Shown: positions 1-52,386 of the stretch, one piece after another
How positions within the stretch are numbered: the first letter of the stretch is position 1
Layout of the letters: each line of letters opens with the position of its first letter
Origin: a virus
Lineage: Duplodnaviria; Heunggongvirae; Uroviricota; Caudoviricetes
DNA length: 54,350 nucleotides
Virus record (IMG/VR): IMGVR_UViG_2909257012_000004
Reading direction: 5' to 3' (one strand)
Position numbers and translations under genes: made by a program
The notes under the pieces: model-generated
What the model was told of the DNA's origin: nothing
The model's input: the letters and a program-made list of their open reading frames with translations, nothing else
The model's database searches: none

Positions 1-1131
1 TCAAATGACCAGTTTTTTCCATTCCTTACCGCGTGCGTCGTTGTAAATATCGGTCATTTTTTGATTCGAATGGCCCAGCAAAATTTTGGTATCAACCCCC
101 TGCTCTCTGAACAATCGCTCTGATAAAGATCTCTGCTCATGGAAAGAGGGTGGGGTGCCATTAGCACGCCAGTTGTAATCCACAGAATCCCGGGCTTTTT
201 TAAATGCAACGGTTAATGTTGCTGGCTTAACCATCCCGCCGCGCTTAGCTGTCCCTTTCGCGTGATGGTGGTGCAATAGCCACGGACTAAGAACGCAATC
301 GCGGCAGGATGACACCACATCATCTAGGGTGAGATTTAATTTATCGCAACGCAGAGCCAGAGGGATGGCAATCCGGGTTCCTGTTTTTTGCTGTTCGACA
401 TGAAGATAACCATCCCGGATATCCGAAAATTGCATTTTGCAAATATCTGAAAGGCGCTGGCCTGTCATCAGTGCCAGCAGCATACCGCGCTGTAAAAAGT
501 AACCATCCTTTTCCGCTGCGTTATAAATCATCATCCACTCATCAAAAGTCAGTCGCTGTCTTGATATCCGCACCTGCGGTTTTTTTGCCGATTCTGCAGG
601 GTTAAAGCCTGGCGGGACATCGCCCGTTTGCTGAGCTTCCCGGAAAACATCGATCAGTACCTTCCTGAAAATTTGTCCCATTCTGTTATGTCCTCTGGCC
701 TTGTACTCTTCCAGTACTGATACCACATCTTTTACGGTTATGGCATCTAACGGTCTGGTGCCAAAACGTTCATCAAATACCCTGAGAGGGGCCGCTTTCT
801 GTTTCAGCGTGTTGAGTTTGATCTCGCCGTTTTCATATCTTTCCTGTTGAATTTTTCTGTAATTATTCAGAAAAATGGTAACGGTTGATGAACCGCCGGT
901 ATCACTAATAATTTTCTCCTGCAGACTGAGCATTTGTTCCATTTGCTGCCGGGCAAGACGGCTGTTCGCTTCTGCTGCAATAGTTTCTGCCAGTTTCTGG
1001 TCAATACTGCCGAGACCGTGATTTTTGCCTGTTATGGGATGCCTGTAACGCCAGTAAACTTTGTTATTTCTTTTGTCAAAATACGGAGATAATCCCGGAA
1101 CATTGGTTTTATATTTTCGCGGGCGCGCCAT
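1..1131 (-). CDS. int: Phage tyrosine integrase; stop codon at window positions 1-3
   Basis: 376-aa ORF with integrase-like sequence, placed at the prophage end next to an excisionase-like ORF. Family call by recall, not search. Confidence 0.85.
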   Translation of the reverse strand: MARPRKYKTNVPGLSPYFDKRNNKVYWRYRHPITGKNHGLGSIDQKLAETIAAEANSRLARQQMEQMLSLQEKIISDTGGSSTVTIFLNNYRKIQQERYENGEIKLNTLKQKAAPLRVFDERFGTRPLDAITVKDVVSVLEEYKARGHNRMGQIFRKVLIDVFREAQQTGDVPPGFNPAESAKKPQVRISRQRLTFDEWMMIYNAAEKDGYFLQRGMLLALMTGQRLSDICKMQFSDIRDGYLHVEQQKTGTRIAIPLALRCDKLNLTLDDVVSSCRDCVLSPWLLHHHHAKGTAKRGGMVKPATLTVAFKKARDSVDYNWRANGTPPSFHEQRSLSERLFREQGVDTKILLGHSNQKMTDIYNDARGKEWKKLVI

Positions 1132-1357
1132 CTTCCAGTATCCTCTTCAAAGCAGGGTGATCTGTGGCGATCACCTCCGGCTTGTTTACCATTCCGACAA
1201 AGCGAGCTTGCGGATCCACTCGCCAGCGTCTTCCAACTTTTTTGGGGAGAGGAAATATCATTCCGGCTTTAGCGTATTTACTTAACGTACTCGGAGTTGG
1301 GACCGGTTCACTGAATTCCTCTTTTGCCCACTCAGTGAGCAGAATAAGTCTTGCCAT
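1109..1357 (-). CDS. xis: Excisionase-like DNA-binding protein
   Basis: 82-aa basic ORF directly upstream of int and overlapping its start by 23 nt, the usual xis-int arrangement. Confidence 0.65.
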   Translation of the reverse strand: MARLILLTEWAKEEFSEPVPTPSTLSKYAKAGMIFPLPKKVGRRWRVDPQARFVGMVNKPEVIATDHPALKRILEDGAPAKI

Positions 1358-1421
1358 GAGCGTCGTTCGCTAATCATGGTCGCCGCCACTATAGCTGGTG
1401 GGCAACGACCGGGGTTGAACA

Positions 1422-3893
1422 TTAAAAATCAGCCTGATTCGGGATCAGTTTTTGCCAGATAACTGAAACGTATTTTGCCTGGTAACGGGCGTCATCAAGT
1501 GCATTATGGCGCTCACCTTCGAATGGAATAGCCGTTCTGGCATCGAAGTCTATGGCTTTCCCCAGCTCAACGATTGTGCGTACATCGCGATCGTTGTAGT
1601 AACGCCATGGGCAGGGGATCCCCTGCCGTTCGTATGAACGGCGCAAAATCGTGTTTTCGAAGTTGGCTCCATTTCCCCAGACCTGAACAAAAAATTCACC
1701 GGAGTTTTCGTCGATAAATTCCCGCAATTGTAACAGTGCATCATCTAACGGGATTTCATCGGTCATAATGGCAGACTGCGCTTCACGTGATTGCTTCAGC
1801 CACCTTTTAATGACGTCACGATCAATGACTCCGCCAGCAGTTTCCAGATCGATAGTCTTACTAAATTCCGGTCCCATATCTCCGGTTTGCGGATCGAAAA
1901 ATATTGCATCTATTGAGATAATCGGGGCATCAGGATTTTTTCCCATGGTTTCAAGGTCAATCATCAGATGGTGCCACAACCTGCTGGTGGATGTGCTTTT
2001 ACGATGACTGTTCACCTTAATTAAGGGATTTGCTGTCTCGCCTATTTCATTATTGTCATTGGCATGTTGATCGCCTTCGGTGCACTCCTTGTTCGGGAGT
2101 CCGGCATTTTCTATTTCCTCTGGATCTTTTTCCCGGGCTTCATCCTGGCTTTCTTCGTTGAATGTCTCCTGGTAGGTTGCGTCACCCATCACTGCGCCAC
2201 AATCAGGGCAGTTACCACCACCAGTCTGATTGCATGCGGTACAAACTTTTTCCTCTTCCTGTTGCACGACTGGTTCAGGTTGTTTCGTTTCTGGCTCGTT
2301 TTGTAACGCATTTTGGCTGTTTTGTTCCGCTTTTTGGTCGTACTGTTCCGTTTCTGACTGGTTCTGGTGCACAGAATCGCGGGTTTCAATCCCCTTCACC
2401 CATTTCGGATCATTCGGGTCGCTAATCCCTTCAACAAATTCACCACGTGATGCAGCGAGCAACTTATTAGCGTCAGGCTGGCTGATACTGGCTGCCTGCA
2501 TAATTTTGTTTACTTCGTCAGCGGTAACTTTTACCAGGTCTGGTTGTGCGGTCGTGTCAGATGCATCAGTATTTTGTTGTGAACCTGTGTATGTGCCGTT
2601 TTTGCGGGCAAAATATTCTTCTTTCGTGATTTCAGTTGCCCCGGCAGCCAGCGCCTTATCCAGACCAGAAAGTTTGTTTGCGCGACCGTATTTTTCGCCA
2701 TCCTTGTCGGTGAAGAGGAAGTAGAACGGCCCCTCACGCTCTACAGATGGTTCGACTTCCACTTTGCATTCGGTTTTTTCGTTGTCCGGAATTGCCGTTT
2801 CCACTGCATCAGTTTCTGGTACTGGCGACGAGAGAGTATCAGTTGCGCTCTGATTTCTTCCTTCATCTTCAAACACGCCCTTTGTAGTCAGGTATTCAGT
2901 AATGTATTTGTTCAGTGCCACAGGGTCTTTGTGAATGTCGATCGGACGTTCACGGACAAGGCCAAAAATAGTCTGGCGGTCGTAGCGAAGGGCATCAGGC
3001 TGTTTGCGCATTGATGCCGAGATACGCTTCCAGTCTTCGCGGTCGTTGTCGATAACTTCATTTTTTGCCCAGCGATGGATGCTGCCGTCAATGTTTCCGG
3101 CATCCACATCACCAGGCCAGAGAGCGTAGGCCAGTTCGTCATCCAGTGTTTTCCATGTCTGCTTGTATTCGCGATGAATGGCAGCAATGACCGGGCTGAT
3201 TTTTCCTGTTGAATTTTCAGTGTACTGTTGATTGGCTCTGGCGCGGGCGAGATCAACAACAGACGTGTATTTTCCGGTTTCCTTGCGTTCACCTTCACGA
3301 CGTTTTTTCCAGATGCGCATCTCTGCCTGAATTTCGGGCCATTTGGCACCAGGCTTACATTTATGCTTAACCCACCCGATGGCATGCAGCTTAAGCTCCG
3401 GATACATGGCGTTAACTTCTGGCATTTTCATCAACGCTTCAACGATATGTCCGTCGAATGTTGCCATGTCTTCCTGCAACAATTCCTGTGCGCTAATAAC
3501 CATATCAACGGTGATGTTTTCACATGTGTCGAACTTAACCATGACAGCGTTCTGTACTTCAGGGGCCAGCTTGTCAAAAGTGACGTTCATCGGATCGGAT
3601 TCAGTCTCAACCGGGACAAAGGAAGCAGACTCCTCATCCCAGCGGTTTTCCTGCATATATTCAGCATCCCAGGAATCGAGGGCAGGGCGGGGTATACCGG
3701 GTTTATCCTCGCAGACAAGAAATTTATAAGCGCAGTCCTGAGCAGCCGGATAATGTTCCAGGAATTGCCAGTGAAATTTTGCGCGGGCGCGACGTTCATC
3801 ACCGGCTTCAATGGCAGTGGCTACAGCGACGGCACCTTCTTCCTTTATTGCCTGTTCGTCCGGAATGGCGGCGCAAATAAAGACTTTACTCAT
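1422..3893 (-). CDS. Large prophage exonuclease (full-length YdfE/RecE-like) with C-terminal DEDDh 3'-5' exonuclease domain
   Basis: 823-aa ORF. C-terminus shows DEDDh motifs (LMIDLETMG, then HNALDDARY). A central stretch (KLLAASRGEFVEGISDPNDPKWVKGI) matches my recollection of RecE. Sits in the exo position of the leftward operon. Confidence 0.7.
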   Translation of the reverse strand: MSKVFICAAIPDEQAIKEEGAVAVATAIEAGDERRARAKFHWQFLEHYPAAQDCAYKFLVCEDKPGIPRPALDSWDAEYMQENRWDEESASFVPVETESDPMNVTFDKLAPEVQNAVMVKFDTCENITVDMVISAQELLQEDMATFDGHIVEALMKMPEVNAMYPELKLHAIGWVKHKCKPGAKWPEIQAEMRIWKKRREGERKETGKYTSVVDLARARANQQYTENSTGKISPVIAAIHREYKQTWKTLDDELAYALWPGDVDAGNIDGSIHRWAKNEVIDNDREDWKRISASMRKQPDALRYDRQTIFGLVRERPIDIHKDPVALNKYITEYLTTKGVFEDEGRNQSATDTLSSPVPETDAVETAIPDNEKTECKVEVEPSVEREGPFYFLFTDKDGEKYGRANKLSGLDKALAAGATEITKEEYFARKNGTYTGSQQNTDASDTTAQPDLVKVTADEVNKIMQAASISQPDANKLLAASRGEFVEGISDPNDPKWVKGIETRDSVHQNQSETEQYDQKAEQNSQNALQNEPETKQPEPVVQQEEEKVCTACNQTGGGNCPDCGAVMGDATYQETFNEESQDEAREKDPEEIENAGLPNKECTEGDQHANDNNEIGETANPLIKVNSHRKSTSTSRLWHHLMIDLETMGKNPDAPIISIDAIFFDPQTGDMGPEFSKTIDLETAGGVIDRDVIKRWLKQSREAQSAIMTDEIPLDDALLQLREFIDENSGEFFVQVWGNGANFENTILRRSYERQGIPCPWRYYNDRDVRTIVELGKAIDFDARTAIPFEGERHNALDDARYQAKYVSVIWQKLIPNQADF

Positions 3894-3985
3894 TTTGTTT
3901 TACCTCATTACAGATTTAAGGGTGAACAAATCCCTGCCATTGCTGGCATATAAGAATGAAACCGGATATTTATTACGGAACTGTT

Positions 3986-4177
3986 TTAAAGACCTGCCGG
4001 GATTTCGTTATTATCCTGGTGAATAACTTTATCGACCGGGTAACAGTTACCGGGAATTTTCTGTTCGGTTGCTGCAGTCACACACTCCTGCATTGTCCTG
4101 TGAACACTGACTGCAATATCAACTGGCTCTCCGGAAACAAGAAAAACTGTCAGAACAAGTGCAAATGCTGTATTCAT
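3986..4177 (-). CDS. ydfD: YdfD-like small lysis protein (63 aa)
   Basis: Internal start MNTAFALVLTVFLVSGEPV... matches recalled Qin YdfD. ATGA overlap with the dicB stop. Confidence 0.75.
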   Translation of the reverse strand: MNTAFALVLTVFLVSGEPVDIAVSVHRTMQECVTAATEQKIPGNCYPVDKVIHQDNNEIPAGL

Positions 4178-4362
4178 TGCCAGCATCCTTTTTGTATCGG
4201 ACGTAAACGGGCCAGCATTGAAAGAATGCATATTTTATTTAATAGCTCCCGTTCGTGTTTTCTCTTGTTAATGGCATCTTCAGTAAATACAGGGTTACTG
4301 ATATTGACACCAATTTCAAAACAACCTTCAGACGTATTAACGTTTGGTAATAACGTTTCCAT
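4174..4362 (-). CDS. dicB: Cell-division inhibitor DicB (62 aa)
   Basis: METLLPNVNTSEGCFEIGVNISNPVFTEDAINKRKHERELLNKICILSMLARLRPIQKGCWQ is near-identical to recalled K-12 DicB, and lies directly downstream of dicF as in Qin. Confidence 0.85.
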   Translation of the reverse strand: METLLPNVNTSEGCFEIGVNISNPVFTEDAINKRKHERELLNKICILSMLARLRPIQKGCWQ

Positions 4363-4536
4363 TATCGCGTCCTCAACAATGAATTTTGTGATGCGGTGCC
4401 TGGTGCCTCCAGGTGACGTTAACCAGTTAACAATTAACGCCGGATACAGAGAATCCACCCATAACACTGTTTTTGGTTTTAACTGTTCCGCGTGCGCTCA
4501 GCCGCATTCACCACATCACAAAATTCACTTTAAAAA

Positions 4537-4589
4537 GGGCGGCAGAGCAGTCACGGAGTAAAACTGATACCGCCAAACGTCACCAGAAA
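4537..4589 (-). ncRNA. dicF: DicF small RNA (53 nt)
   Basis: Minus-strand sequence TTTCTGGTGACGTTTGGCGGTATCAGTTTTACTCCGTGACTGCTCTGCCGCCC matches the recalled DicF sequence exactly, including its 3' hairpin followed by a T-run. Confidence 0.9.
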
Positions 4590-4927
4590 ATTGATAACAG
4601 AGGGCGTTGCAGCGGAGTTGTCACTTAAGCGTATGGTCAACCTGACAACCCGGTGTCCTCAACGGAGGAAGGAATAACCCCGCCATACTTACCGCCGCGC
4701 CATTTCGCGGAGTGCCACAACCGGAAGCGCACGGTCGAACTAAATTTAACGACACCGTACAGAGAGACCAATTTCGCCGTGCGCTTTCGCTTTATGCCCT
4801 GACTTTTCAGGGACATATCCTTTCAGTAAACTGTCAGTGCCGGATGTTCACCCGTGTCCGGCGCACGCACTCCACCTGACCCGTGGAGAACTCCTTAATT
4901 ACCAACCTTAGCTTCGTTGGTTAGCTA

Positions 4928-5146
4928 TTAACGCGGGTATGTAACCATTCTGGCAATGCTTAATGCCGCTGCTTTTTCCAGCCTGGTGATATCCTGCTCC
5001 AGAGCGGACAGATTTTCAGCCTGCTTAGTCCTGGCTTCATTGGCCCATTTCAGATCCTGCGCTGCATTAATTTTCTGGCGCATCCACTCATAAAGTTCAT
5101 CATCGGTATAGTCTGGCGCGATGATGACGGGTTCTCGTTTCTGCAT
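4928..5146 (-). CDS. ydfC: YdfC-like protein (72 aa)
   Basis: 72-aa ORF in the ydfC position of the operon (between ydfB and dicF). Confidence 0.65.
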   Translation of the reverse strand: MQKREPVIIAPDYTDDELYEWMRQKINAAQDLKWANEARTKQAENLSALEQDITRLEKAAALSIARMVTYPR

Positions 5147-5175
5147 ACTGATTCCTCGCGGTGCTGCTTCGCTTA

Positions 5176-5304
5176 TCAGCCGTTAGATTTTGCCGAGCTG
5201 GAAAGCGCCTGTTTAAACTCACTGAAGCTGAGAGCTTCTTCGCCTTCGGCAAGGCCTTCGAAGTATTCTTCGTAAGCCTTTTCCATGATTGTGTCGAAAT
5301 CCAT
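5176..5304 (-). CDS. ydfB: YdfB-like small protein (42 aa); below the 60-aa cutoff of the ORF track
   Basis: Hand translation of the minus strand gives MDFDTIMEKAYEEYFEGLAEGEEALSFSEFKQALSSSAKSNG between ydfA and ydfC. Confidence 0.7.
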   Translation of the reverse strand: MDFDTIMEKAYEEYFEGLAEGEEALSFSEFKQALSSSAKSNG

Positions 5305-5305
5305 A

Positions 5306-5461
5306 TCACTCACCTGAGTTTCTTTCCAGCCAGCGACGGGCACCATTTTCGGTTTTAAACGTTTTGCTTTTGGTATACGTCATTGCGGTGAACGTGCCGT
5401 CCTGGTTGGGGAACACGCCACATACCAGAGATTCGCTGTTGCCAAGATCGATAGTATCCAT
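5306..5461 (-). CDS. ydfA: YdfA-like small protein (51 aa)
   Basis: Internal start MDTIDLGNSESLVCGVFPNQDGTFTAMTYTKSKTFKTENGARRWLERNSGE matches recalled Qin YdfA. Confidence 0.75.
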   Translation of the reverse strand: MDTIDLGNSESLVCGVFPNQDGTFTAMTYTKSKTFKTENGARRWLERNSGE

Positions 5462-5645
5462 GCTGACCTCATTTCCCCTTAACGCCGGGGGAGCGGAACA
5501 AAAACCTGCTGCATAGTTATTAAAGTTGAACCCTGCCGTCATGTTCTTACGCCTCGGGCTGGCTACTTACCCCCTGACCACTGCTTGGTAACTCGAAGTA
5601 TTGCCCGGCGTTCTGTGGGGCGGGGTGGGTTGGTATGTTGTTAAG

Positions 5646-5659
5646 GTAACAAGAGTTAC
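5646..5659. promoter_or_regulatory. OL-like operator palindrome GTAAC-AAGA-GTTAC in the leftward promoter region
   Basis: Same GTAAC-N4-GTTAC inverted repeat as the two copies between the repressor and cro-like genes. Confidence 0.5.
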
Positions 5660-5704
5660 CTTTCGAGTCAATACAATGTTGCAAAAGGTACATTTGAGGG
5701 CATA

Positions 5705-5731
5705 AAAAACCCGCAATGAATGCGGGTTCTG
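5705..5731 (-). terminator. Rho-independent terminator after the repressor gene
   Basis: Minus-strand hairpin AACCCGCATTCATTGCGGGTT followed by TTTTTTAT. Confidence 0.6.
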
Positions 5732-5733
5732 AC

Positions 5734-6408
5734 TCAGTCTAAGTATTGATGTATTTGTGAAACTTTACCTTTAATGGTGTAACCACCATTCAGTTCGATG
5801 GGTTTGTAAAGCGGATTCAGTGACAACAGATAGATGTTTGGTCCGTCAATCGCAACTTTTTTTAGTGTTACGTTTGGCGTTCCTTCCAATTGGATTAAGA
5901 TTATTTTTCCCACCAGTTCTCTAATGTTACTTGAGCATGGTGTGATCAGCACGGTAGATCCGTCGGGGATGGTTGGGAGGCCGTTAGAGTTTGTCATCGC
6001 ATCTCCCTCAACATGCAATAAAAAAGAGTTTTCAGCGGTTTTTGTCATGACATCAACCCAGTTCTTAATACCAGGAATCTTGGTTACTGGACAACTCATA
6101 TCCCAATAACCAGCCTGTTCCCACGTTAAAACGGGCAACCGGGCGATGTTGTCACTAATGTAAGGGTACTGATTCAGACGCAGATCATCGGTTTTATCGT
6201 GACCGTCCTTTCCATAAAGAATCCATTCAGGAGATTTGGAAAGCAATTTTGACAGTAGATACAAATTCTCACCGTCAGGTTTTGAAGAGCCATTTTCCCA
6301 TTTTGTTACGGATACACGAGATATGCCGATTGCTTTCGCAACCTGCTGTTGGGTTAATCCAACGTCTTTTCGACGATTCCGAATACGTTCGCTGATAGTG
6401 TTTTTCAT
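5734..6408 (-). CDS. CI-like prophage repressor (HTH XRE domain plus LexA/S24 peptidase domain)
   Basis: N-terminal HTH (GLTQQQVAKAIGISRVSVTKWENG) and a C-terminal S24-like domain. Start chosen at MKNTISERI (6408) because the ORF-track start at 6507 would overlap the divergent cro-like start and two operators lie between. Alternative starts at 6450 or 6507. Confidence 0.8.
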   Translation of the reverse strand: MKNTISERIRNRRKDVGLTQQQVAKAIGISRVSVTKWENGSSKPDGENLYLLSKLLSKSPEWILYGKDGHDKTDDLRLNQYPYISDNIARLPVLTWEQAGYWDMSCPVTKIPGIKNWVDVMTKTAENSFLLHVEGDAMTNSNGLPTIPDGSTVLITPCSSNIRELVGKIILIQLEGTPNVTLKKVAIDGPNIYLLSLNPLYKPIELNGGYTIKGKVSQIHQYLD

Positions 6409-6470
6409 GTAACCAATGTTACTACCAAGTGATGTTGCTATGGTTGACATTGTTATGTAACTATTGTTAC
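6409..6470. promoter_or_regulatory. OR-like region with two operator palindromes (GTAACCAATGTTAC at 6409-6422, GTAACTATTGTTAC at 6457-6470)
   Basis: Two 14-bp inverted repeats 48 bp apart in the divergent intergenic region between the repressor and cro-like genes. Confidence 0.6.
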
Positions 6471-6499
6471 CCTTCTGCTCGAAATAACAGGAGAGTTTT

Positions 6500-6715
6500 A
6501 TGTTCAAAGATGATGTTCTGCGCTATTTCAAAAAAAAGCGACTAGTAGCTGAGGCTCTTGGAATTTCACATGTGGCTGTTGTGCGGTGGAAAGCAGTTAT
6601 TCCCAAACTTCGCGCAATGGAACTGGATGAAATTACTAACGGTGAATTGAAATACAACCCAGAACTTTACAAGAAGCAGGATAGCACCTCGAACGAAGGA
6701 AAGAATGATTCATGA
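6500..6715 (+). CDS. Cro-like small DNA-binding regulator (Cro/CI or YdaS-like)
   Basis: 71-aa ORF divergent from the repressor, AGGAGA Shine-Dalgarno, HTH-like segment LGISHVAVVRWK. Confidence 0.65.
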   Translation: MFKDDVLRYFKKKRLVAEALGISHVAVVRWKAVIPKLRAMELDEITNGELKYNPELYKKQDSTSNEGKNDS

Positions 6716-7137
6716 AAATCAAGCATGAACACATCCGCATGGCGATGAATGCCTGGGCGCATCCGGACGGCGAAAAAGTGCCGGCTGCGAAAATTACCAA
6801 AGCGTATTTCGAGCTGGGAATGACGTTCCCGGAACTGTATGACGACAGCCATCCGGAAGCCCTGGCCCGTAATACCCAGAAAATTTTCCGTTGGCTGGAT
6901 AAAGACACCCCTGATGCTGTTGAAAAAATGCAGGCTCTGTTACCGGCGATCGAAAAGGCGATGCCGCCTTTGCTGGTGGCCCGTATGCGCAGCCACAGTT
7001 CTGAATATTACCGTGAGATCGTCGAACGGCGGGATCGGCTGGTGAAGGATGTCGATGATTTTGTTGCGTCAGCGGTTGTTTTGTATGACCAGATGAATCG
7101 CGGCGGCCCGGCAGGGAATGCTGTGGTGATGCACTAA
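6712..7137 (+). CDS. YdaT-like / CII-position regulatory protein
   Basis: 141-aa ORF translationally coupled to the cro-like gene (ATGA overlap). N-terminus MKIKHEHI resembles recalled YdaT. Confidence 0.5.
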   Translation: MKIKHEHIRMAMNAWAHPDGEKVPAAKITKAYFELGMTFPELYDDSHPEALARNTQKIFRWLDKDTPDAVEKMQALLPAIEKAMPPLLVARMRSHSSEYYREIVERRDRLVKDVDDFVASAVVLYDQMNRGGPAGNAVVMH

Positions 7138-7144
7138 AAGCACG

Positions 7145-8122
7145 GTGTTCGGGGGTTTTATGAGCAGCAAGCTTCATGGTCTTGTCTGGGAAGGGTGCGC
7201 CTTCACCGGCATGATCTTATCCAGGGTGGCGGTTATGGCCCGTCTTGCAGACTACAGCAATGACGAGGGCGTGTCATGGCCTGCCATTGAAACTATCCGG
7301 CGTCAGATCGGTGCAAGAAGTGAATCCACAGTGAAATCGGCTATTGCAGAACTGGCGAAAGAGGGCTGGCTGACGAAGGAAGAGCGTAAGGTCGGTGGGC
7401 GTAATGTAAGCAATATCTATCGGCTTAATGTGGAAAAACTCGAAGCAGCTGCGGCGGCGGCGCGTGAGTCATATAAACCGAAAAGAAAAATTAGCCCGGC
7501 AAAAAATGACCCGTTAACAGTTGACCCGTCAAATATTGACCCCTCAACGGTTGACCCGTCAAATTTTGATGGATCAACTGTTGATAAAAAACTGCCGATT
7601 AGGGGGCCGATGATTGACCCCGATCCGTCAGTATTAAAACCTGATCCGTCAGATAAAAGATCTTCTTGTCCGGACGCTTCGCAACCGGACCCGCAGACGG
7701 CTGAACAGGATTTTTTAACCCGACACCCTGACGCGGTTGTGTTCAGTGCGAAAAAACGCCAGTGGGGAAGTCAGGAAGATTTGGTGTGCGCACAGTGGAT
7801 CTGGGGACGAATCGTGAGTCTTTACGAGCAGGCGGCCAGCTATGATGGCGAGATCACTAGACCGAAAGAACCCAACTGGACAGCATGGACCAATGACGTT
7901 CGCACAATGCGGATGCTGGATGGCAGAACTCACAGACAAATTTGTGAAATGTTTGGGCGTCTCCAGCGGGATTCGTTCTGGGTAAAAAACATCATGAGTC
8001 CGGCAAAACTCCGGGAAAAATGGGATGAACTGGTTATCCGCCTGGGGCGTTCGCCTGCGCAGCGTTGCGTGAATCACATTTCTGAACCGGACACTGAAAT
8101 ACCGCCGGGATTCAGGGGGTGA
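7145..8122 (+). CDS. Replication initiator (lambda O-like); likely true start at 7160
   Basis: N-terminal HTH region, position upstream of the DnaC-like gene, and an internal iteron array. Confidence 0.7.
   Translation: MFGGFMSSKLHGLVWEGCAFTGMILSRVAVMARLADYSNDEGVSWPAIETIRRQIGARSESTVKSAIAELAKEGWLTKEERKVGGRNVSNIYRLNVEKLEAAAAAARESYKPKRKISPAKNDPLTVDPSNIDPSTVDPSNFDGSTVDKKLPIRGPMIDPDPSVLKPDPSDKRSSCPDASQPDPQTAEQDFLTRHPDAVVFSAKKRQWGSQEDLVCAQWIWGRIVSLYEQAASYDGEITRPKEPNWTAWTNDVRTMRMLDGRTHRQICEMFGRLQRDSFWVKNIMSPAKLREKWDELVIRLGRSPAQRCVNHISEPDTEIPPGFRG
7506..7590. repeat. Origin-like iteron array inside the initiator gene (about 5 repeats of TTGACCCGTCAAA-like units, ~15-bp period)
   Basis: Directly visible tandem repeats ttgacccgtcaaat / ttgacccctcaacg / ttgacccgtcaaat / tttgatggatcaact, encoding the DPSxxDPS protein repeats. 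Confidence 0.7.
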
Positions 8123-8128
8123 CGTGTC

Positions 8129-8875
8129 ATGAAAAACATTGCGGCAGTTGGGGTTCTTGAACGTATTCGCAGACTTGCACCACAGGGGTCGGTTCCACCG
8201 TACCGGACGGTGGAGGAGTGGCGGGAATGGCAACTTGCTGAAGGACGAAAACGCAGCGAGGAGATTAACCGCCAGAATCGCCAGTTGCGGGTGGAAAAAA
8301 TCCTGAATCGTTCGGGCATCCAGCCTCTGCACAGCAAATGCTCGTTTGCAAATTATCAGGTGCAGAACGACGGGCAAAAATACGCGCTGAGCCAGGCCAA
8401 ATCCATAGCTGACGAACTGATGACCGGGTGCACGAATTTTGTGTTCAGCGGTAAAACCGGCACCGGGAAAAATCACCTTGCAGCGGCGATGGGCAACCGG
8501 CTGATGGTGAAGGGGCGCAGCGTGATTATCGTCACCGTGTCTGACGTCATGAGCGTGTTGCATGACAGCTACGACAACGGCAAATCCGGGGAAAAATTTT
8601 TACAGGAGCTTTGCGGGGTTGATTTGCTGGTCCTGGATGAAATAGGCGTTCAGCGGGAGACGAAAAACGAGCAGGTGGTATTGCACCAGATAATTGATCG
8701 CCGGACAGCATCACTGTGCAGTGTCGGGATGTTAACAAACCTGAATCATGCCGCAATGAGTACGCTTCTTGGTGAGAGGATTATGGACCGCATGACCATG
8801 AACGGTGGTCGATGGGTGACGTTTAACTGGGATAGCTGGCGTCCAAATGTCAGCAATATGAGGGTTGTGAAGTAA
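8129..8875 (+). CDS. DnaC-like helicase loader (AAA+ ATPase)
   Basis: Walker A motif GKTGTGKNHLA and Walker B LLVLDEIG; follows the initiator gene. Confidence 0.85.
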   Translation: MKNIAAVGVLERIRRLAPQGSVPPYRTVEEWREWQLAEGRKRSEEINRQNRQLRVEKILNRSGIQPLHSKCSFANYQVQNDGQKYALSQAKSIADELMTGCTNFVFSGKTGTGKNHLAAAMGNRLMVKGRSVIIVTVSDVMSVLHDSYDNGKSGEKFLQELCGVDLLVLDEIGVQRETKNEQVVLHQIIDRRTASLCSVGMLTNLNHAAMSTLLGERIMDRMTMNGGRWVTFNWDSWRPNVSNMRVVK

Positions 8876-8896
8876 TTTTGTCCGGAGGAAATTTTA

Positions 8897-18233: not shown

Positions 18234-20102
18234 ATGGTGGAAAGAACCATGGCATTTAAACACTATGATGTTGTCAGGGCGGCGTCGCCGTCAGATCTTG
18301 CGGAAAAGCTGACACATAAACTGAAAGAGGGCTGGCAGCCGTTTGGTAGTCCGGTGGCCATAACCCCTTATACCCTGATGCAGGCGATTGCAGCAGAAGG
18401 TGATGTGGTCGTCAGTGGTGCAACTGAGCCGGAGTGGTACTACGTCATCGTACTGGCCGGGCAATCCAATGCCATGGCTTACGGTGAAGGGCTTCCGCTT
18501 CCGGATTCATACGATGCGCCCCATCCGCGCATTAAGCAACTGGCCCGTCGTAACACAGTGACTCCCGGTGGTGAAGTATGCGTATTTAACGACATCATTC
18601 CTGCTGACCATTGTCTGCATGATGTTCAGGATATGAGTACGATTAACCATCCCCGGGCTGACCTGAGCAAAGGGCAGTACGGCTGTGTCGGACAGGGCTT
18701 ACATATTGCCAAAAAACTGCTTCCGTATATCCCTAATAATGCGGGGATCCTGCTGGTACCATGCTGTCGTGGTGGTTCGGCATTCACCCAGGGCACGGAG
18801 GGGACATTCAGCGAGTCCACGGGGGCCAGTCAGGATTCGGCTCGCTGGGGAGTGGGTAAGCCGTTATATCAGGATCTGCTTTTCCGCACGAAGGCAGCAT
18901 TGCAGAAAAACCCGAAAAACGTTTTGCTGGCGATATGCTGGATGCAGGGGGAATTCGATATGACGAATGCCAGTTACGCCCAGCAGCCAGCAGCATTTCT
19001 TGCAATGGTACAGCAGTTCCGTGCTGACCTTGCCGGGCTGGCGGCGCAGTGTCACGGTGGAAGTCCGGCATCAGTCCCCTGGATTTGTGGCGACACGACA
19101 TACGCGTGGAAACAAGAACACGGTACGCAATATGAAGTGGTATATGGTGCATATAAAGGTAAAGAATCCCAGCAGATTTATTTTGTTCCCTTTATGACCG
19201 ATGGTAGCGGAGTTAATACACCGACAAACAACCCGTCAGAAGATCCTGATATTGCCGGGTCTGGTTATTACGGTTCGGCATCCCGAACGAACAAAAACTG
19301 GGTATCATCAAATCGCCCGACGCATTTCAGCTCATGGGCGCGTCGTGGCATTATTCCCGATCGTATGGCAACTGCTATTCTGAACGTAGCCGGTCGCACC
19401 TTAGCCTTCATTAGTGGTAAGGCACCGGAAATCAAACCCTCGCCCGGCGGCGACACGCCATCGGGGCCGTCTGAAGATGCATCCGTACGCACAATCTCCC
19501 TGTTGCCGACAGCCGGAGATGCTGCTGCGCAGGGCTGGAGCATTAAGAATGGCGGAATTCAGTTGTCAGATGGTGTATTTAAGATCACCAAGCAGAGCAA
19601 TAAAGCCTGGTCCCTGACGCGCCCGGTGGATGACGCAGTCTCCCTGCTGACACGGGGTGGCAGACTGAGCTGTAAGTTTCGACTGTCAGGCGCACTGACC
19701 AACAATCAGTTCGGTCTGGGAATTTATCTGTATACCGATGTAGCGTTACCTGACGTCGTGGCGATGACCGGGACTGGTAACCCGTTCCTGATGTCGTTCT
19801 TCACCCAGACCACAGACGGCAAACTGAATCTGATGCATCACAAGAAAGCAGGAAACACAAAGTTGGGCGAGTTCGGGAATTACAGTAACGACTGGCAGAC
19901 GCTGGAGCTGGTGTTCACCGCCGGCAGTGCCACGGTTACTCCGAAACTGAATGGAGTGGCTGGCCCGGCATTCCAGGTCATAAAAGACAGTCTGACACTG
20001 GGGCTGAATGCGCTGACGCTGACGGATATTACCAAAAATGCAACGTATGGCGTTGAGATAGAAAGTCTGGTGCTGGAGATAAATGCACCGGCATCATCAT
20101 AA
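18234..20102 (+). CDS. nanS: Phage sialate O-acetylesterase NanS-p-like (SASA/DUF303 domain)
   Basis: 622-aa ORF with esterase motif GQSNAMAY near the N-terminus, in the position NanS-p occupies downstream of stx in Stx phages. Possible alternative start at 18249. Confidence 0.75.
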   Translation: MVERTMAFKHYDVVRAASPSDLAEKLTHKLKEGWQPFGSPVAITPYTLMQAIAAEGDVVVSGATEPEWYYVIVLAGQSNAMAYGEGLPLPDSYDAPHPRIKQLARRNTVTPGGEVCVFNDIIPADHCLHDVQDMSTINHPRADLSKGQYGCVGQGLHIAKKLLPYIPNNAGILLVPCCRGGSAFTQGTEGTFSESTGASQDSARWGVGKPLYQDLLFRTKAALQKNPKNVLLAICWMQGEFDMTNASYAQQPAAFLAMVQQFRADLAGLAAQCHGGSPASVPWICGDTTYAWKQEHGTQYEVVYGAYKGKESQQIYFVPFMTDGSGVNTPTNNPSEDPDIAGSGYYGSASRTNKNWVSSNRPTHFSSWARRGIIPDRMATAILNVAGRTLAFISGKAPEIKPSPGGDTPSGPSEDASVRTISLLPTAGDAAAQGWSIKNGGIQLSDGVFKITKQSNKAWSLTRPVDDAVSLLTRGGRLSCKFRLSGALTNNQFGLGIYLYTDVALPDVVAMTGTGNPFLMSFFTQTTDGKLNLMHHKKAGNTKLGEFGNYSNDWQTLELVFTAGSATVTPKLNGVAGPAFQVIKDSLTLGLNALTLTDITKNATYGVEIESLVLEINAPASS

Positions 20103-21055: not shown

Positions 21056-21160
21056 AAATAATCCTCATGATTGTATTGACCTGTTAGCAGCCTGAGGCAA
21101 CAGGCTGGAACTGATAAACATATCCAGGGCTCAGAAACCGATAAATCCTGATAAATATCC

Positions 21161-21694
21161 ATGAACGCAAAAATCAGATACGGCCTGTCGGCTGCCGTTC
21201 TGGCGCTGATTGCCGCTGGTGCGCCTGCGCCTGACATTCTCGACCAGTTTCTGGATGAAAAGGAAGGTAACCACACCACGGCATACCGTGATGGCGCGGG
21301 TATCTGGACCATCTGCCGCGGTGCCATCCTGGTGGATGGCAAACCTGTCGTTCCGGGCATGAAGTTGTCGAAGGAAAAATGCGACCGGGTTAACGCCATT
21401 GAGCGTGATAAGGCGCTGGCATGGGTGGAGAAAAACATCAAAGTGCCATTGACCGAACCCCAGAAAGCGGGGATCGCGTCATTCTGTCCGTACAACATTG
21501 GTCCCGGTAAGTGTTTCCCGTCGACGTTTTACAGACGAATTAATGCAGGTGATCGCAGGGGAGCATGCGAAGCGATTCGCTGGTGGATTAAGGACGGTGG
21601 CAGAGACTGCCGTATTCGCTCAAATAACTGTTACGGTCAGGTATTCCGTCGTGACCAGGAGAGCGCGCTGGCGTGCTGGGGAATCGACAGATAA
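21161..21694 (+). CDS. SAR endolysin (GH24 lysozyme, R21-like)
   Basis: N-terminal signal-anchor-release segment (LSAAVLALIAAGAPA) and a lysozyme E...D...T region (EGNHTTAYRDGAGIWTICRG). Confidence 0.85.
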   Translation: MNAKIRYGLSAAVLALIAAGAPAPDILDQFLDEKEGNHTTAYRDGAGIWTICRGAILVDGKPVVPGMKLSKEKCDRVNAIERDKALAWVEKNIKVPLTEPQKAGIASFCPYNIGPGKCFPSTFYRRINAGDRRGACEAIRWWIKDGGRDCRIRSNNCYGQVFRRDQESALACWGIDR

Positions 21695-37100: not shown

Positions 37101-37393
37101 CCACGTACTTTGCGTTTGCAAAAGGGGCCGGGCTGATGGGGGAAGCCGGACCTGAAGCCATTATGCCCCTGACCCGGGCGGCGGATGGCTCGCTGGGCGT
37201 ACGCGCGGTGGGCAGTATGAACGGCAGTGCCGGTCTGGTGTATTCCCCGGTCTACCACATCGCCATTCAGAATGACGGGGCTAACGGACAGATAGGGGCG
37301 GAGGCGGCAGGCAGTCTTGTGCAGCTGATTGACCAGCGGGTGCAGGCGGTGATGCTGTCCATGCGACGTGACGGAGGAATGCTGAGTGGCTGA
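34151..37393 (+). CDS. Tail tape measure protein
   Basis: 1080-aa largely helical protein after the G/GT chaperone pair. Confidence 0.9.
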   Translation: MATLRELIIKISANSQSFQSEIQRASRMGSEYYRTLQNGGRQAAAVARVQRRALAELNSQLTEIRASAAGTAGAFAGAFATGHLISLADEWSSVNARLKQASQSSDEFSSSQKVLMDISQRTGTAFSDNAALFARSAASMREYGYSADDVLKVTEAISTGLKISGASTAEAGSVITQFSQALAQGVLRGEEFNSVNESGDRIVRALAAGMGVARKDLKAMADDGKLTADKVVPALISQLGVLRDEYAAMPETVSDGITKVENAFMAWVGGANEASGATKTLSGVLNGVAGNIDNVATAAGALVAVGVARYFGNMASGAVSATAGLVTAARNEVALAEAQLRGTQIATARARAAVYRAQQAVAAARGTEMQIAAEARLAATQERLNRNIAARTAAQNELNSTTAVGSRLMTGALGLVGGVPGLVMLGAAAWYTLYQNQEQARESARQYALTIDEIAHKTPSMSLPEASDNEGRTRAALAEQNRLIDEQASRVKSLQEKIAGYQYVLANPGWTTGDGFMINHLTSVKTVTEGLSQATEQLAVEQSRLAQMQEKAQSIQDVLAGLEDRRVALIRQQAAEQNKVYQSMLVMNGQHTEFNRLLGLGNELLQQRQGLVNVPLRLPQATLDDKQQSALTKTERELALSRLKGEEKERARLGYAADDLGFVGDSYQEARQRYISNALEAWRNNEANKPKSRGGKSETEKAEDSFSRLLKQQKEQLALAGQNTELAKLKYQTAQGELKTLTEMQKQELLRNAALIDQQKIREQLRSREETLKNDNVAARASNEAELLGYGQGERARERMRELQQIRDSFRQKDADLQSQYQTGDISEDFYRQARAQNAQYLSERLKDQAAFYAESDAQRADWQKGLQEGLSNWVDNASDYASQAAQLATEGISGMVNNITEMLNGNKVEWRNWASSVLQEISKVLMNAAIVNGIKTAANGMSGAGGFIGSIGDWLGGAVANAKGGVYTSANLSAYSNSIVDTPTYFAFAKGAGLMGEAGPEAIMPLTRAADGSLGVRAVGSMNGSAGLVYSPVYHIAIQNDGANGQIGAEAAGSLVQLIDQRVQAVMLSMRRDGGMLSG

Positions 37394-43640: not shown

Positions 43641-44020
43641 ATGCGTAAATTATGTGCTGTTATTTTGTCCGCAGTAGTCTGGCAGGTCGCCGCTGCTACG
43701 CCAGCGAGTGCAGCAGAACATCAGTCCACGCTGAGCGCGGGGTATCTCCATGCCTCGACGAACGTTCCCGGTAGTGATGATCTGAACGGGATTAACGTGA
43801 AATACCGTTATGAGTTTACGGACGCGCTGGGGCTGATTACGTCCTTCAGTTATGCCAATGCTGAGGATGAGCAAAAAACGCGCTACAGCGATACCCGCTG
43901 GCATGAAGATTCCGTGCGTAACCGCTGGTTCAGCGTGATGGCGGGGCCGTCTGTACGCGTGAATGAATGGTTCAGCGCGTATGCGATGGCGGGTGTGGCT
44001 TACAGCCGTGTGTCGACTTT
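43641..44020 (+). pseudogene. lom: lom (Ail/Lom outer-membrane protein) 5' fragment, interrupted by an IS21-family insertion
   Basis: Signal peptide and Lom-like N-terminus; the reading frame runs into the IS terminal repeat at 44021. Confidence 0.8.
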
Positions 44021-44213
44021 TGCGTATTTTCATGAAAGGAGATCACTCAATAACTTCCATCGAGATCGGGTAATAACATTTGAACAGATCGCTGAATAAC
44101 ATCGATGGAGATCACTTTTGACTCATTTTGTTATTCAGTGATCTCCATCAATGTTATTGGAACTTCACAGGTGTGTTGATCTGTATCTTTTGCCATTCCG
44201 GTAAAGGATACCT

Positions 44214-45755
44214 ATGCCAACAGTTCCAATTTCTATGAGAAAACTTAAAGAAATTCTTAGGCTTAAATACGGTGTTGGACTCAGCCATCGACAAATTGGT
44301 CGTAGTCTTGCAATCTCCCCTTCCGTTGTATCCAGATATGCTAATCGGGCGGCTCAACTTGGCATAAAGCAGTGGCCCTTACCTACAGGATGGGATGATA
44401 CAAAACTAAAACATGCGTTCCTTCAGACCCAGGTTAAGATGAAGAAGCACTCTCTGCCTGACTGGGCTACAGTACACCGGGAACTGCGTAATAAATGCGT
44501 GACGCTGCAGCTACTCTGGGAAGAATACTGTGAGCGTAATCCAAGCGGTTTTTACAGCTATAACCATTACTGCCGGATGTACCGTGAATGGCTCAAAACC
44601 ACTTCACCATCAATGCGTCAGGTACATAAAGCTGGCGAAAAACTTTTCGTTGATTACTGTGGACCTACCGTTGGCGTTACCGACCCTGAGACCGGAGAAA
44701 TAAGAACTGCTCAGGTCATCGTAGCTGTTCTCGGGGCATCAAGTTACACATGGGCAGAGGCCACCTGGTCTCAGCAGCTTGAAGACTGGGTGATGAGTCA
44801 TGTTCGCTGCTTCCAGTGGTTGGGTGGCGTTCCTGAACTTGTTGTTCCGGACAATCTGAAAAGCGCCACATCCAGGGCATGTAAGTATGATCCTGACGTT
44901 AACCCTACCTACCAGCAGATGCTTGAGCATTATAATGTCGCAGTTTTGCCTGCGCGGCCACGTAAACCGAAAGATAAAGCCAAAGCTGAAGTTGGCGTTC
45001 AGGTTGTTGAACGCTGGATCATGGCCCGAATCAGGCATGAGATCTTCTACAGCCTTGCATCGCTTAATCAGCGCATTCGGGAGTTGCTGGAAAGACTGAA
45101 TAACAAAATAATGCAGAAGTTGGGTTATTCACGTGCAGAACTCTTCATCCAGCTTGATAAACCCGCACTGAAGCCTCTTCCTGAAGCCAGTTACAGTTAC
45201 ACCCTGGTGAAGAAAGTCAGAGTTCATGCCGATTACCACGTGGAAATCGACAAACATTACTACTCGGTTCCATGTTCGCTGTTAGGCCAGCAACTGGAAG
45301 CATGGATCTCCGGAGAACTGGTAAGACTCTTCAATCAGGGGCAGGAGGTTGCTGTGCACCCGCGCAAGCGTACTTATGGCTACAGTACCCGCAACGAGCA
45401 CATGCCTGAAGCTCATCGACAGCATGCCACCTGGACGCCAGAGCGTCTTCTGGAATGGGCGGGGCACATAGGCAGTGAAACTCATAGTTATGTGCTTCAT
45501 ATACTGAACTCTCGTCCACATCCGGAACAAAGCTATCGCTTCTGCCTTGGACTCCTGAACCTTCATAAAAAATACAGTAAAGCCAGACTTAATGCAGCAT
45601 GTGCAAGAGCTCTGAAAACAAAGGTATGGCGTCTGTCAGGTATTAAATCGATCCTGGAAAAAGGTCTGGATAAACAACCTGTTCAGGATCCAAAACCAGA
45701 TCTGTTATCCACGATGGAACACGAAAACGTACGCGGCAGTGAGTATTACCACTGA
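44214..45755 (+). CDS. istA: IS21-family transposase IstA
   Basis: 513-aa ORF with N-terminal HTH and a DDE-type transposase core. Confidence 0.85.
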   Translation: MPTVPISMRKLKEILRLKYGVGLSHRQIGRSLAISPSVVSRYANRAAQLGIKQWPLPTGWDDTKLKHAFLQTQVKMKKHSLPDWATVHRELRNKCVTLQLLWEEYCERNPSGFYSYNHYCRMYREWLKTTSPSMRQVHKAGEKLFVDYCGPTVGVTDPETGEIRTAQVIVAVLGASSYTWAEATWSQQLEDWVMSHVRCFQWLGGVPELVVPDNLKSATSRACKYDPDVNPTYQQMLEHYNVAVLPARPRKPKDKAKAEVGVQVVERWIMARIRHEIFYSLASLNQRIRELLERLNNKIMQKLGYSRAELFIQLDKPALKPLPEASYSYTLVKKVRVHADYHVEIDKHYYSVPCSLLGQQLEAWISGELVRLFNQGQEVAVHPRKRTYGYSTRNEHMPEAHRQHATWTPERLLEWAGHIGSETHSYVLHILNSRPHPEQSYRFCLGLLNLHKKYSKARLNAACARALKTKVWRLSGIKSILEKGLDKQPVQDPKPDLLSTMEHENVRGSEYYH

Positions 45756-45766
45756 TACGGGATCCA

Positions 45767-46516
45767 ATGATGAATCATCTTTACGAACAACTGACCGCAC
45801 TTAAACTCACCGGCTTCCGTGATGCGCTTAAAAAGCAACTTGCTCAACCGGGCACATACCAGGAGCTGGGCTTCGAAGAACGCCTGTCATTACTGACAGC
45901 AGAAGAACTAACCTGCCGTGAAAACAGGAAGGCAGAGCGTCTGATCAAACATGCACGGTTCAGACTTAATGCTGAGTTATCAAAGCTGGATTATCGTAAC
46001 AATAGAGGGCTGGACAGGGCCCTCATCCGTTCACTCAGTCAGGGAAACTGGTTAACCCTGAAACAAAATATTTTACTGACCGGGGCCACCGGCAGCGGTA
46101 AAACGTTCCTGGCATGTGCACTTGGTCATAATGCCTGCCGACAGGGATACAAGGTCTACTATTATCGCCTTAAAGCGCTGATGGAACAGTGCTATCAGGG
46201 GCATGCTGATGGAAGATACAGCAAACTTTTGACCAGGCTGAATAATAGCGATCTGCTGCTTCTGGATGACTGGGGGCTGGAACCTCTCTCATCAGAACAG
46301 CGTAGCGACCTGCTGGAAATAGTGGATCTGATGTACCAACGAGGCTCAATCATCGTAGTGAGCCAGTTGCCGGTGGAAAACTGGTACAAAATGATCGGAG
46401 ACTCCACACATGCGGATGCCATCCTAGATCGACTGGTTCATGGCAGTATCAAGATCGAACTTAAAGGAGAATCAATGCGGAAAATACAATCTCCGTTGAC
46501 CGAAGGAGATCAGTGA
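45767..46516 (+). CDS. istB: IS21-family ATP-binding helper IstB
   Basis: Walker A GATGSGKT and Walker B LLLLDDWG. Confidence 0.85.
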   Translation: MMNHLYEQLTALKLTGFRDALKKQLAQPGTYQELGFEERLSLLTAEELTCRENRKAERLIKHARFRLNAELSKLDYRNNRGLDRALIRSLSQGNWLTLKQNILLTGATGSGKTFLACALGHNACRQGYKVYYYRLKALMEQCYQGHADGRYSKLLTRLNNSDLLLLDDWGLEPLSSEQRSDLLEIVDLMYQRGSIIVVSQLPVENWYKMIGDSTHADAILDRLVHGSIKIELKGESMRKIQSPLTEGDQ

Positions 46517-46601
46517 AGGTAATTTAAAAACGGTTCTGTGAAAGTGACACGAACCGATCTCCATCGATGTTACTCACCGATCTCCTTCACGGTAATACGC
46601 A

Positions 46602-52382: not shown

Positions 52383-52386
52383 GATG

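Follow-up and report, generated by a model that had tools for sequence, protein, structure and literature searches.

An intact dicBF operon with a K-12-identical DicF RNA in a lambdoid prophage beside ompW, and its repressor with alanine at the nucleophile position

Introduction

DicF and DicB are the textbook prophage-encoded inhibitors of cell division, and a further copy of their module adds by itself nothing new. The locus considered here, positions 4537..4589 on the minus strand of a viral DNA (Caudoviricetes, IMG/VR record IMGVR_UViG_2909257012_000004; the whole stretch of 54,350 nucleotides that was analysed is called the window below), raises the questions of whether an exact DicF RNA lies there within an intact ydfABC-dicF-dicB-ydfD operon, by which repressor this operon is controlled, whether it works as in the Qin prophage of E. 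coli K-12, and in what sense it is placed where phage lambda carries kil.

The DicF RNA and the genes of its operon

An exact DicF had been claimed for the minus strand in a sequence-only reading of the window, and the alignment with K-12 bears this out: the sequence TTTCTGGTGACGTTTGGCGGTATCAGTTTTACTCCGTGACTGCTCTGCCGCCC matches in direct comparison the annotated dicF ncRNA (b1574) of E. coli K-12 MG1655 at 53/53 positions, with no mismatch in the seed, and by this identity the experimentally mapped pairing regions of the 5' and 3' parts are unchanged here. The Rfam model RF00039 (DicF) is matched at 4537..4588 of the same strand with 76.7 bits against a gathering threshold of 48 (E 3e-15, model positions 1-52 of 52), and every consensus pair of the terminator stem is canonical in the model alignment. 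Folded alone, nucleotides 16-52 are predicted to form an intrinsic-terminator hairpin (-15.9 kcal/mol) followed by UUUUU, with the T-tract at 4536..4532. A second DicF-like match was absent from the window, permissive thresholds over 1..20000 included. The stretch might alternatively be read as protein-coding, since a 51-aa plus-strand ORF (4473..4628) spans it, and two minus-strand ORFs of 44 and 59 aa lie just upstream, all three figuring in the mechanical six-frame list. However, none of these ORFs is annotated in the RefSeq or phage records examined, and the full-length match is to a structured RNA family, so that a coding function can practically be discounted.

The surroundings of DicF are likewise those known from K-12, with the same ydfABC-dicF-dicB order and spacing. 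The predicted precursor, which corresponds to the 190-nt species of K-12, shows 3 substitutions and 1 inserted base relative to it, with no change in the predicted fold; the leader between dicF and dicB differs by 1 substitution and gives an STnc100-like match below threshold (38.7 bits vs the gathering score of 47). No minus-strand promoter-like site was found between ydfC and dicF in a generic scan of 3800..6800.

All the genes of the operon lie on the minus strand and point toward xis and int, as expected from the leftward operon that the same reading had described. It had also placed YdfA, YdfB (42 aa) and YdfC ahead of dicF, where all three were found, and had taken the dicB and ydfD frames to be intact, with which the alignment agrees: ydfA, ydfB, ydfC, dicB and ydfD have the K-12 lengths, and frameshifts and premature stops are absent from all five (Table 1). 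YdfA, DicB and YdfD are full-length matches to the Pfam families DUF1391, DicB and DUF1482, respectively, and for DicB (PF05358) the score is 124.9 bits vs a gathering threshold of 27, with residues 1-62 on profile positions 1-62; no Pfam family was found for YdfB or YdfC. DicB differs from its K-12 counterpart in 8 of the 62 residues, 5 of them within the last 9. The ydfD ATG overlaps the dicB stop (ATGA), a 4-nt overlap as in K-12, in the annotation of which the YdfD product is named a lysis protein. At the DNA level, the alignment to K-12 Qin begins about 40 nt ahead of ydfA and continues past ydfD, 1.4 kb in all, with scattered substitutions only and the ydfC-dicF interval as one short variable patch. 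Judging from these alignments, the likeness of the module to that of K-12 is homology, which chance cannot give.

Table 1. Coordinates of the features discussed, in window numbering
Feature	Position	Strand	Basis or remark
int	1..1131	-	collinear with the JJ1887 integrase; ends at the ompW-side attachment junction, window position 1
xis	1109..1357	-	collinear with the JJ1887 excisionase
823-aa exonuclease, distal gene of the leftward operon	1422..3893	-	Pfam Rv2179c-like 3'-5' exonuclease domain, E 1e-60
ydfD (DUF1482), 63 aa	3986..4177	-	59/63 identical to K-12; Pfam PF07358, E 4e-25
dicB, 62-aa cell-division inhibitor	4174..4362	-	54/62 identical to K-12; Pfam PF05358, E 1e-36
dicF-dicB leader, 174 nt, with the dicB Shine-Dalgarno GAGGA at its end	4363..4536	-	alignment
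dicF, mature 53-nt sRNA	4537..4589	-	identity to b1574; Rfam RF00039
Predicted ~190-nt DicF precursor (191 nt here)	4537..4727	-	alignment to the K-12 190-nt species
ydfC, 72 aa	4928..5146	-	69/72 identical to K-12; annotated ydfC in RefSeq
ydfB, 42 aa	5176..5304	-	42/42 identical to K-12
ydfA (DUF1391), 51 aa	5306..5461	-	49/51 identical to K-12; Pfam PF07151, E 9e-28
Predicted pL-type promoter	5643..5671	-	-35 TTGACT 5671..5666, 17-nt spacer, -10 TACCTT 5648..5643
Predicted operator, palindrome AAGGTAAC-N4-GTTACCTT, perfect 8-4-8	5643..5662		overlaps the pL -10
Predicted intrinsic terminator after the repressor gene, CCCGCA-TTCAT-TGCGGG then T6	5704..5726	-	read from the sequence
cI/LexA-type repressor, 238 aa, HTH + Peptidase S24	5734..6450	-	Pfam HTH_3 E 4e-17, Peptidase_S24 E 1e-16
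Further predicted operators, GTAAC-N4-GTTAC	6409..6422 and 6457..6470		repressor/cro divergent control region
cro-like gene, 71 aa	6500..6715	+	Pfam P22_Cro, E 3e-16

Prophage setting and distribution of the module

The window is a lambdoid prophage, collinear with and 99.99% identical to the prophage at the ompW site of the ST131 strain JJ1887, in the record of which replication, Q-type antitermination, lysis and morphogenesis genes are annotated past the immunity region. The JJ1887 copy is annotated with intact genes for structure, lysis and replication and with intact int and xis, except for lom, where an ISEc12 insertion is common to the window and JJ1887. The leftward operon has the order pL – ydfABC – dicF – dicB – ydfD – 823-aa exonuclease – xis – int; the dicBF operon is, consequently, a pL-type, early-left operon in a prophage that is largely complete and lies beside ompW. 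The JJ1887 prophage carries ISEcp1-blaCTX-M-15, whereas the window is devoid of it, and because of the absence of this insertion the tape-measure ORF of the window is whole (34151..37393, 1080 aa). An IS1 with a 9-bp duplication, inserted at 17048..17815 inside an iraM-like gene, is extra relative to JJ1887. That the window is JJ1887 itself was ruled out by this extra IS1 and the missing ISEcp1-blaCTX-M-15. The literature search on the ompW/ST131 prophage and its induction returned nothing relevant.

The 1.85-kb module was matched in 4769 of 5426 complete E. coli genomes, at a median of 2 places per genome and a maximum of 10; at least 80% of it is present in 2136 genomes, and hundreds of genomes, many of them of ST131 type, are 100% identical. 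The DicF 53-mer region was matched in 3946 of the 5426 genomes, with 3760 records at least 99% identical, and phage records matching the module numbered 59. The occurrence of dicBF in many prophage contexts has already been published (PMC5069750), as have the four dicF copies in EHEC. The finding of the module is, therefore, already known, because its exact layout is annotated in the phage Tritos and DicF is present in such a number of genomes: it is an ordinary module that occurs in most E. coli genomes.

The value of the present result is, in part, one of annotation. The genes ydfA/B/C, dicB and ydfD are listed in the RefSeq/PGAP records of the identical prophage (dicB is annotated in the identical RefSeq records), and dicF is not: the matches to it are unannotated in RefSeq (feature 'none'), and the JJ1887 record has no ncRNA row. 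Because the RefSeq/PGAP records omit dicF, it is routinely missing from the annotations of ST131 and other clinical genomes, and the omitted sRNA has known effects on ftsZ, xylR, pykA, manX and, in EHEC, on virulence regulators.

Control region and repressor

A dicA/dicC immunity region was not found upstream of ydfA, the DNA homology to Qin ending about 40 nt upstream of this gene. The region carries a full-length cI/LexA-type repressor gene and a divergent cro-like gene, the latter faced by TTGACA at 6445..6450. Exact GTAAC-N4-GTTAC occurs at 3 sites in 54 kb, every one of them in the immunity region, and these palindromic sites are strongly predicted to be the OL and OR operators. From this clustering and a reading of the sequence, we infer the pL promoter listed in Table 1, which the predicted terminator at 5704..5726 would insulate from the repressor transcripts. 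In the generic sigma-70/terminator scan of 3800..6800, pL, the repressor terminator and the DicF terminator were all unreported; the stem of DicF is interrupted by a bulge and capped by a 9-nt loop, and pL has a weak -10. No N-like antiterminator gene was recognised here.

The repressor aligns to lambda cI over residues 25-231, and the nucleophilic Ser of the G-x-S-M motif (lambda S149, LexA S119) is missing from it. The position is occupied by A151 (VEGDAMT), the codon of which, GCG at 5998..6000, is one base from TCG; the motif reads GDAMT here vs GNSMT in lambda cI, GDSMT in P22 C2 and SKA5 cI, and GESMT in Pantoea AH07. The Ala-Gly scissile site is kept (EQAGYW vs VQAGMF in lambda and VSAGQW in P22), and so is the general-base Lys (TLKKV vs TFKKL with K192 in lambda), the column of which is invariant. 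Replacement of Ser by Ala at this position was reportedly found by Slilaty and Little in 1987 to abolish self-cleavage in both LexA and lambda cI. The substitution, therefore, leads to the prediction that RecA-stimulated self-cleavage is lost and that the repressor is not SOS-cleavable. The literature search on naturally Ser-less cI repressors returned nothing relevant. As an observation at the level of sequence, this Ser-to-Ala change of the repressor is the only non-routine feature.

The repressor gene is present in 701 genomes, and the exact 61-mer around the Ala codon in 680 of the 5426 complete E. coli genomes. All copies with at least 97% amino acid identity, from cow, urine, O111:H8 and other strains, have Ala, while an 87%-identical homologue from an O178:H19 strain has GDSMT, i.e., Ser. 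Among the sequenced phages of the collection this repressor was not found, the best match being 44% identical. The immunity region with the Ala repressor occurs in prophages at ompW (ST131, ETEC6) and adjoining potC (O26:H11), and the clade (about 680 of 5426 complete genomes) includes ST131, O26:H11, O111:H8 and ETEC; the ydfB/ydfC regions are mosaic among these prophages, with DicF (76.7 bits) and dicB always there. The search of the window for LexA boxes (CTGT-N8-ACAG) gave one site, at 45884 in the ISEc12-mapped span, with 0.8 expected by chance, and provides no evidence of an SOS-controlled antirepressor. No clear antirepressor was recognised in the window, the sole candidate being a Rha-family ORF at 53793..54350.

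We suggest tentatively, with a confidence somewhat below even, that the dicBF operon of this prophage clade stands under a full-length cI/LexA-type repressor made refractory to cleavage by its Ser-to-Ala change, so that a single fixed change would have uncoupled the operon from SOS and another trigger would be needed. The candidates for such a trigger are an antirepressor encoded elsewhere, trans cleavage by a co-resident S24 repressor, and stochastic switching. If the suggestion is true, 'non-SOS' control would have been reached twice independently, here by way of this repressor and in K-12 by way of the truncated DicA. And if the repressor is truly non-cleavable, the expectations on induction of the prophage and of its toxic early operon, e.g., by SOS-inducing antibiotics, change in clinically important lineages.

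The same data bear on whether the operon is a permanently silenced relic, this copy being essentially never expressed and its perfect conservation reflecting recent spread rather than use. Such a view draws on the fixation of the Ser-to-Ala change in about 680 genomes, on the window having neither a LexA box above chance expectation nor a recognised antirepressor, and on the IS1 in the iraM-like gene and the ISEc12 in lom. However, the IS elements struck accessory genes, the genes named above being, but for lom, annotated as intact in the JJ1887 copy and the tape-measure ORF being whole in the window, and the occurrence of the Ala-repressor immunity region in unrelated lineages and at two integration sites implies continued mobility or recombination. 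Moreover, expression of the K-12 dicBF operon persists under a DicA with no cleavage domain, namely during stationary phase, within subpopulations and through an antirepressor (PMC10448788), and the conservation of DicF (the 3760 records) despite mosaic flanks argues for purifying selection. A relic is, on this balance, unlikely.

Proposed mechanism

The locus is very probably a bona fide dicBF operon, i.e., the ydfABC-dicF-dicB-ydfD host-takeover module working as in K-12 Qin, and the mechanism given here is proposed because its parts are identical or nearly so to those of the experimentally studied K-12 system. In the lysogen, the cI-type repressor on the palindromic operator over the pL -10 would, judging from the sequence, silence the operon. 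With the repression lifted, a polycistronic transcript is expected to run from near 5636 through ydfA, ydfB and ydfC, and many transcripts would end at the DicF hairpin and its U-tract, giving an RNA of about 1.1 kb, comparable to the 1,146-nt ydfABC-dicF RNA of K-12 (PMC10448788). In K-12, dicF has no internal promoter, and the terminated transcript occurs together with a read-through one of 1,608 nt (PMC10448788), the 3' end of DicF being made by Rho-independent termination (PMC5069750). The 5' end would then be trimmed by RNase III to the species of about 190 nt and by RNase E to the 53-nt DicF, as has been shown in K-12 (PMC10448788) and is probable here from the near-identity of the precursor.

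Bound by Hfq, the mature DicF would block the translation of ftsZ by pairing of its 3' part with the ribosome-binding site, and that of xylR and pykA (likewise manX) by pairing of its 5' part. For K-12, repression of ftsZ via the 3' part and of xylR and pykA via the 5' part was established with compensatory mutants, and Hfq was found to help (PMC5069750). The predicted DicF duplex with the ftsZ leader (RNAduplex, -38.5 kcal/mol) is matched by 52 of 500 shuffled DicF sequences that pair equally well; because the energy does not discriminate against shuffles, the claim of DicF:ftsZ pairing rests on the identity to the validated K-12 pair, and in 5388 of 5424 genomes the ftsZ leader with which DicF pairs shares at least 99% identity with that of K-12.

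The read-through transcripts would give DicB, which, by its function in K-12, would bind MinC, bring it to ZipA at midcell and dismantle the Z ring, and would also block the ManYZ-dependent entry of lambda-like phages; both the recruitment of MinC to ZipA and the block of ManYZ-dependent phage DNA entry have been described for DicB (PMC6832061). YdfD and the exonuclease would come from the same read-through RNAs, as might xis and int. The net outcome during derepression would be an arrest of division, a rewiring of metabolism and the exclusion of superinfecting phages. As to derepression, in K-12 the block by DicA, which has no cleavage domain, is lifted by the antirepressor Rem and through stochastic switching.

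Comparison with known systems

The dicBF region of K-12 Qin has the same genes, order and lengths as the operon of the window, an identical DicF, and proteins of 87-100% identity. The control differs: Qin has DicA (135 aa, no S24 domain) and DicC, whereas in the window their places are taken by the 238-aa HTH+S24 repressor and a P22-Cro-like protein, and the operators of the two regions are unrelated. IS2 interrupts the ydfE of K-12, a pseudogene, whereas the exonuclease gene of the window is intact, and, unlike the cryptic Qin, the prophage of the window still has the int, xis, replication, lysis and morphogenesis genes. The layout of the phage Tritos (OV696610) is the same, i.e., repressor/cro - ydfABC - DicF (annotated as misc_RNA) - dicB - ydfD - 2,472-nt exonuclease - xis - int, 93% of the module aligning at a nucleotide identity of about 96%; it differs by a 139-aa repressor with an HTH domain only and by another integrase. 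Similar sequenced temperate phages are vB_EcoS-689R5, PhiR42_1 and mEp460.

The phage Evi shares the backbone and keeps DicF (with 1 substitution) and the leader except for the roughly 25 nt next to the dicB start; from there on, a 73-aa ORF stands in place of dicB-ydfD, until the sequences are homologous again some 75 nt ahead of the exonuclease. This ORF is 81% identical to KilR of Rac, which is annotated in K-12 as 'inhibitor of FtsZ' and is unrelated in sequence to DicB; no Pfam family was found for the KilR of Evi and Rac, and the literature search on KilS/kilR gave nothing relevant. The Rac order is racR - ydaG - ydaF (DUF1391) - KilS sRNA - kilR - ... - recE - xis - int, and the slot in Rac and Evi is composed as here: an sRNA with a terminator, a leader of about 175 nt, a small division inhibitor, an exonuclease, xis and int. 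The KilS region of Rac is homologous to the terminator stem, T-tract and leader of dicF, with different 5' and loop sequences, and KilS scores 39.1 bits on the Rfam DicF model, below the threshold of 48. By these comparisons, the small division inhibitor behind a related sRNA/terminator is exchangeable in this slot and, because Evi carries a DicF-KilR hybrid, the slot appears to be a reassorting cassette of two parts, an sRNA (DicF or KilS) and a small inhibitor of the FtsZ ring (DicB or KilR).

From what DicF and KilS share, and from the low score of KilS, one could conclude that the conserved element serves mainly to partition the leftward operon by termination or attenuation, with a secondary role as a trans-acting sRNA, and the terminated and read-through transcripts of K-12 fit such a function. 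However, DicF is invariant in thousands of genomes and in mosaic contexts also in its single-stranded 5' part and its loop, neither of which a terminator requires, and these same parts are the experimentally mapped regions of pairing with xylR, pykA and ftsZ (PMC5069750). With plasmid-borne K-12 DicF, seed mutants in which the hairpin is preserved no longer cause filamentation or repress the targets, dicB expression being unchanged (PMC5069750). The two roles are, moreover, compatible, and the attenuator role is already contained in the mechanism proposed above, so that a mainly terminating element is highly improbable, and the bona fide dicBF operon remains the preferred reading. With the module itself being familiar, only the repressor substitution and the reassorting sRNA-plus-inhibitor cassette might deserve more work.

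In lambda, the pL operon includes kil, the gene of a small division inhibitor, in the interval from the immunity region to the recombination/int genes, and the likeness to the present locus is one of position and function. The transcription from lambda pL depends on N antitermination, and we know of no DicF-like sRNA at the kil position of lambda. Lambda Kil is reported to act on FtsZ in a ZipA-dependent manner (PMC3961180). The view of the sequence-only reading that a complete module is placed where lambda carries kil holds, as an analogy, for a module that stands in a pL-type operon, with the immunity region on one side and exonuclease/xis/int on the other, and whose dicB-ydfD is replaced in Evi by KilR. 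The comparisons support taking the 'kil position' as a positional and functional analogy, not as homology, and the kilR of Rac as the direct comparator.

Immunity region and repressor

The coordinates of the features considered here have been collected in the table. The cI/LexA-type repressor bears alanine at the position of the catalytic serine, while the lysine and the Ala-Gly cleavage site are both kept; its self-cleavage is predicted not to be possible. The exact 61-mer spanning the alanine codon was found in 680 complete E. coli genomes of unrelated lineages, and the repressor homologue of O178:H19, 87% identical, has serine, not alanine, at the catalytic position. The immunity type is without a close relative among the sequenced phages, the best repressor match being 44%. 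Exact GTAAC-N4-GTTAC palindromes occur three times in the 54-kb window, all of them within the immunity region, and probably serve this immunity type as operators.

Features of the window and of the K-12 Rac prophage (L016)
Feature	Coordinates	Strand	Remarks
KilS, annotated sRNA	L016 6906..7003	-	upstream of kilR; partly homologous to dicF
Palindrome GTAAC-N4-GTTAC	5643..5662		overlaps -10 of leftward promoter
cI/LexA-type prophage repressor	5734..6450	-	Ala (GCG) at catalytic Ser position, codon 5998..6000, motif VEGDAMT
Palindromes GTAAC-N4-GTTAC	6409..6422 and 6457..6470		between cro and repressor gene
queH-like gene (epoxyqueuosine reductase)	about 9.7..10.4 kb		early-right region; placed by collinearity with JJ1887 (L002 14803..15468)
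sok antitoxin RNA	11016..11191	+	Rfam 120.5 bits; adjoins hokD-type toxin gene, early-right region
Two prophage tRNA genes	15712..15784 and 15888..15961	+	tRNA-Ile, tRNA-Arg by JJ1887 annotation
Full STnc100 copy	16661..16850	+	132 bits; flanked by DUF3927 gene and iraM-like gene
IS1 copy	17048..17815		in iraM-like anti-adaptor gene; 9-bp target duplication GGTAGCACT
Tape-measure gene	34151..37393	+	intact, 1080 aa
lom gene (Ail/Lom family)	about 43641..46826		split by ISEc12 (IS21-family); istA about 44214..45755, istB about 45770..46516
Truncated recombinase/invertase and tail-fibre-assembly fragments	within 51980..54350		
Class I SAM methyltransferase	52387..53055	-	
Rha-family regulator	53793..54350	-	Pfam Phage_pRha, E 3e-27

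Cargo genes and insertion elements

Like their counterparts in Qin, the sok RNA and the hokD-type gene make up a type I toxin-antitoxin pair. The tRNA genes (15712..15961, +) lie downstream of a Q-type antiterminator and a DNA methyltransferase, the position at which tRNAs precede stx in Stx phages; JJ1887, the ST131 strain with the nearly identical prophage, has no stx gene in its annotation at this place. The queH-like gene is an unusual cargo gene for tRNA modification.

The JJ1887 prophage, otherwise 99.99% identical, differs from the window in missing the IS1 and in carrying a 3.2-kb ISEcp1-blaCTX-M-15 insertion at the site matching window about 36172..36176, where the tape-measure gene of the window is intact; this prophage is therefore already known as a place where CTX-M-15 lands in the chromosome. 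The interruption of lom by ISEc12 is shared by both. The right end of the window, 51980..54350, contains debris, listed in the last three rows of the table, that seems to come from elsewhere than the same phage.

The dicF gene, its leader and its relatives

The PGAP annotations of the RefSeq records at matches H26-H30 and of JJ1887 (L002 about 21160..21215) include ydfA/B/C, dicB and ydfD, and none of them includes the dicF ncRNA, although the exact 53-mer is present; dicF is systematically unannotated in thousands of E. coli genomes. The dicF-dicB leader (window 4330..4539, -) gave a sub-threshold match to STnc100 (RF02076), 38.7 bits versus 47, and shares with the full STnc100 copy the motifs TGGTGAAT and TCACC-GGAGGCACC-GGCACC; the weak match downstream of DicF recurs in four other loci.

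The literature search found no publication on KilS together with kilR. On the Rfam DicF model, KilS scored 39.1 bits, below the threshold of 48; its terminator stem, its T-tract and the leader downstream of it are homologous to those of dicF, and its 5' and loop region differs. In phage Evi (L015, LR597642), the segment 5307..5759, compared with window 3986..4589, retains DicF with one substitution and the leader, while a Rac-type KilR, 81% identical to that of K-12, stands exactly in place of dicB-ydfD. The Evi locus is a natural DicF-KilR hybrid, and it shows the sRNA and the protein inhibitor to reassort independently.
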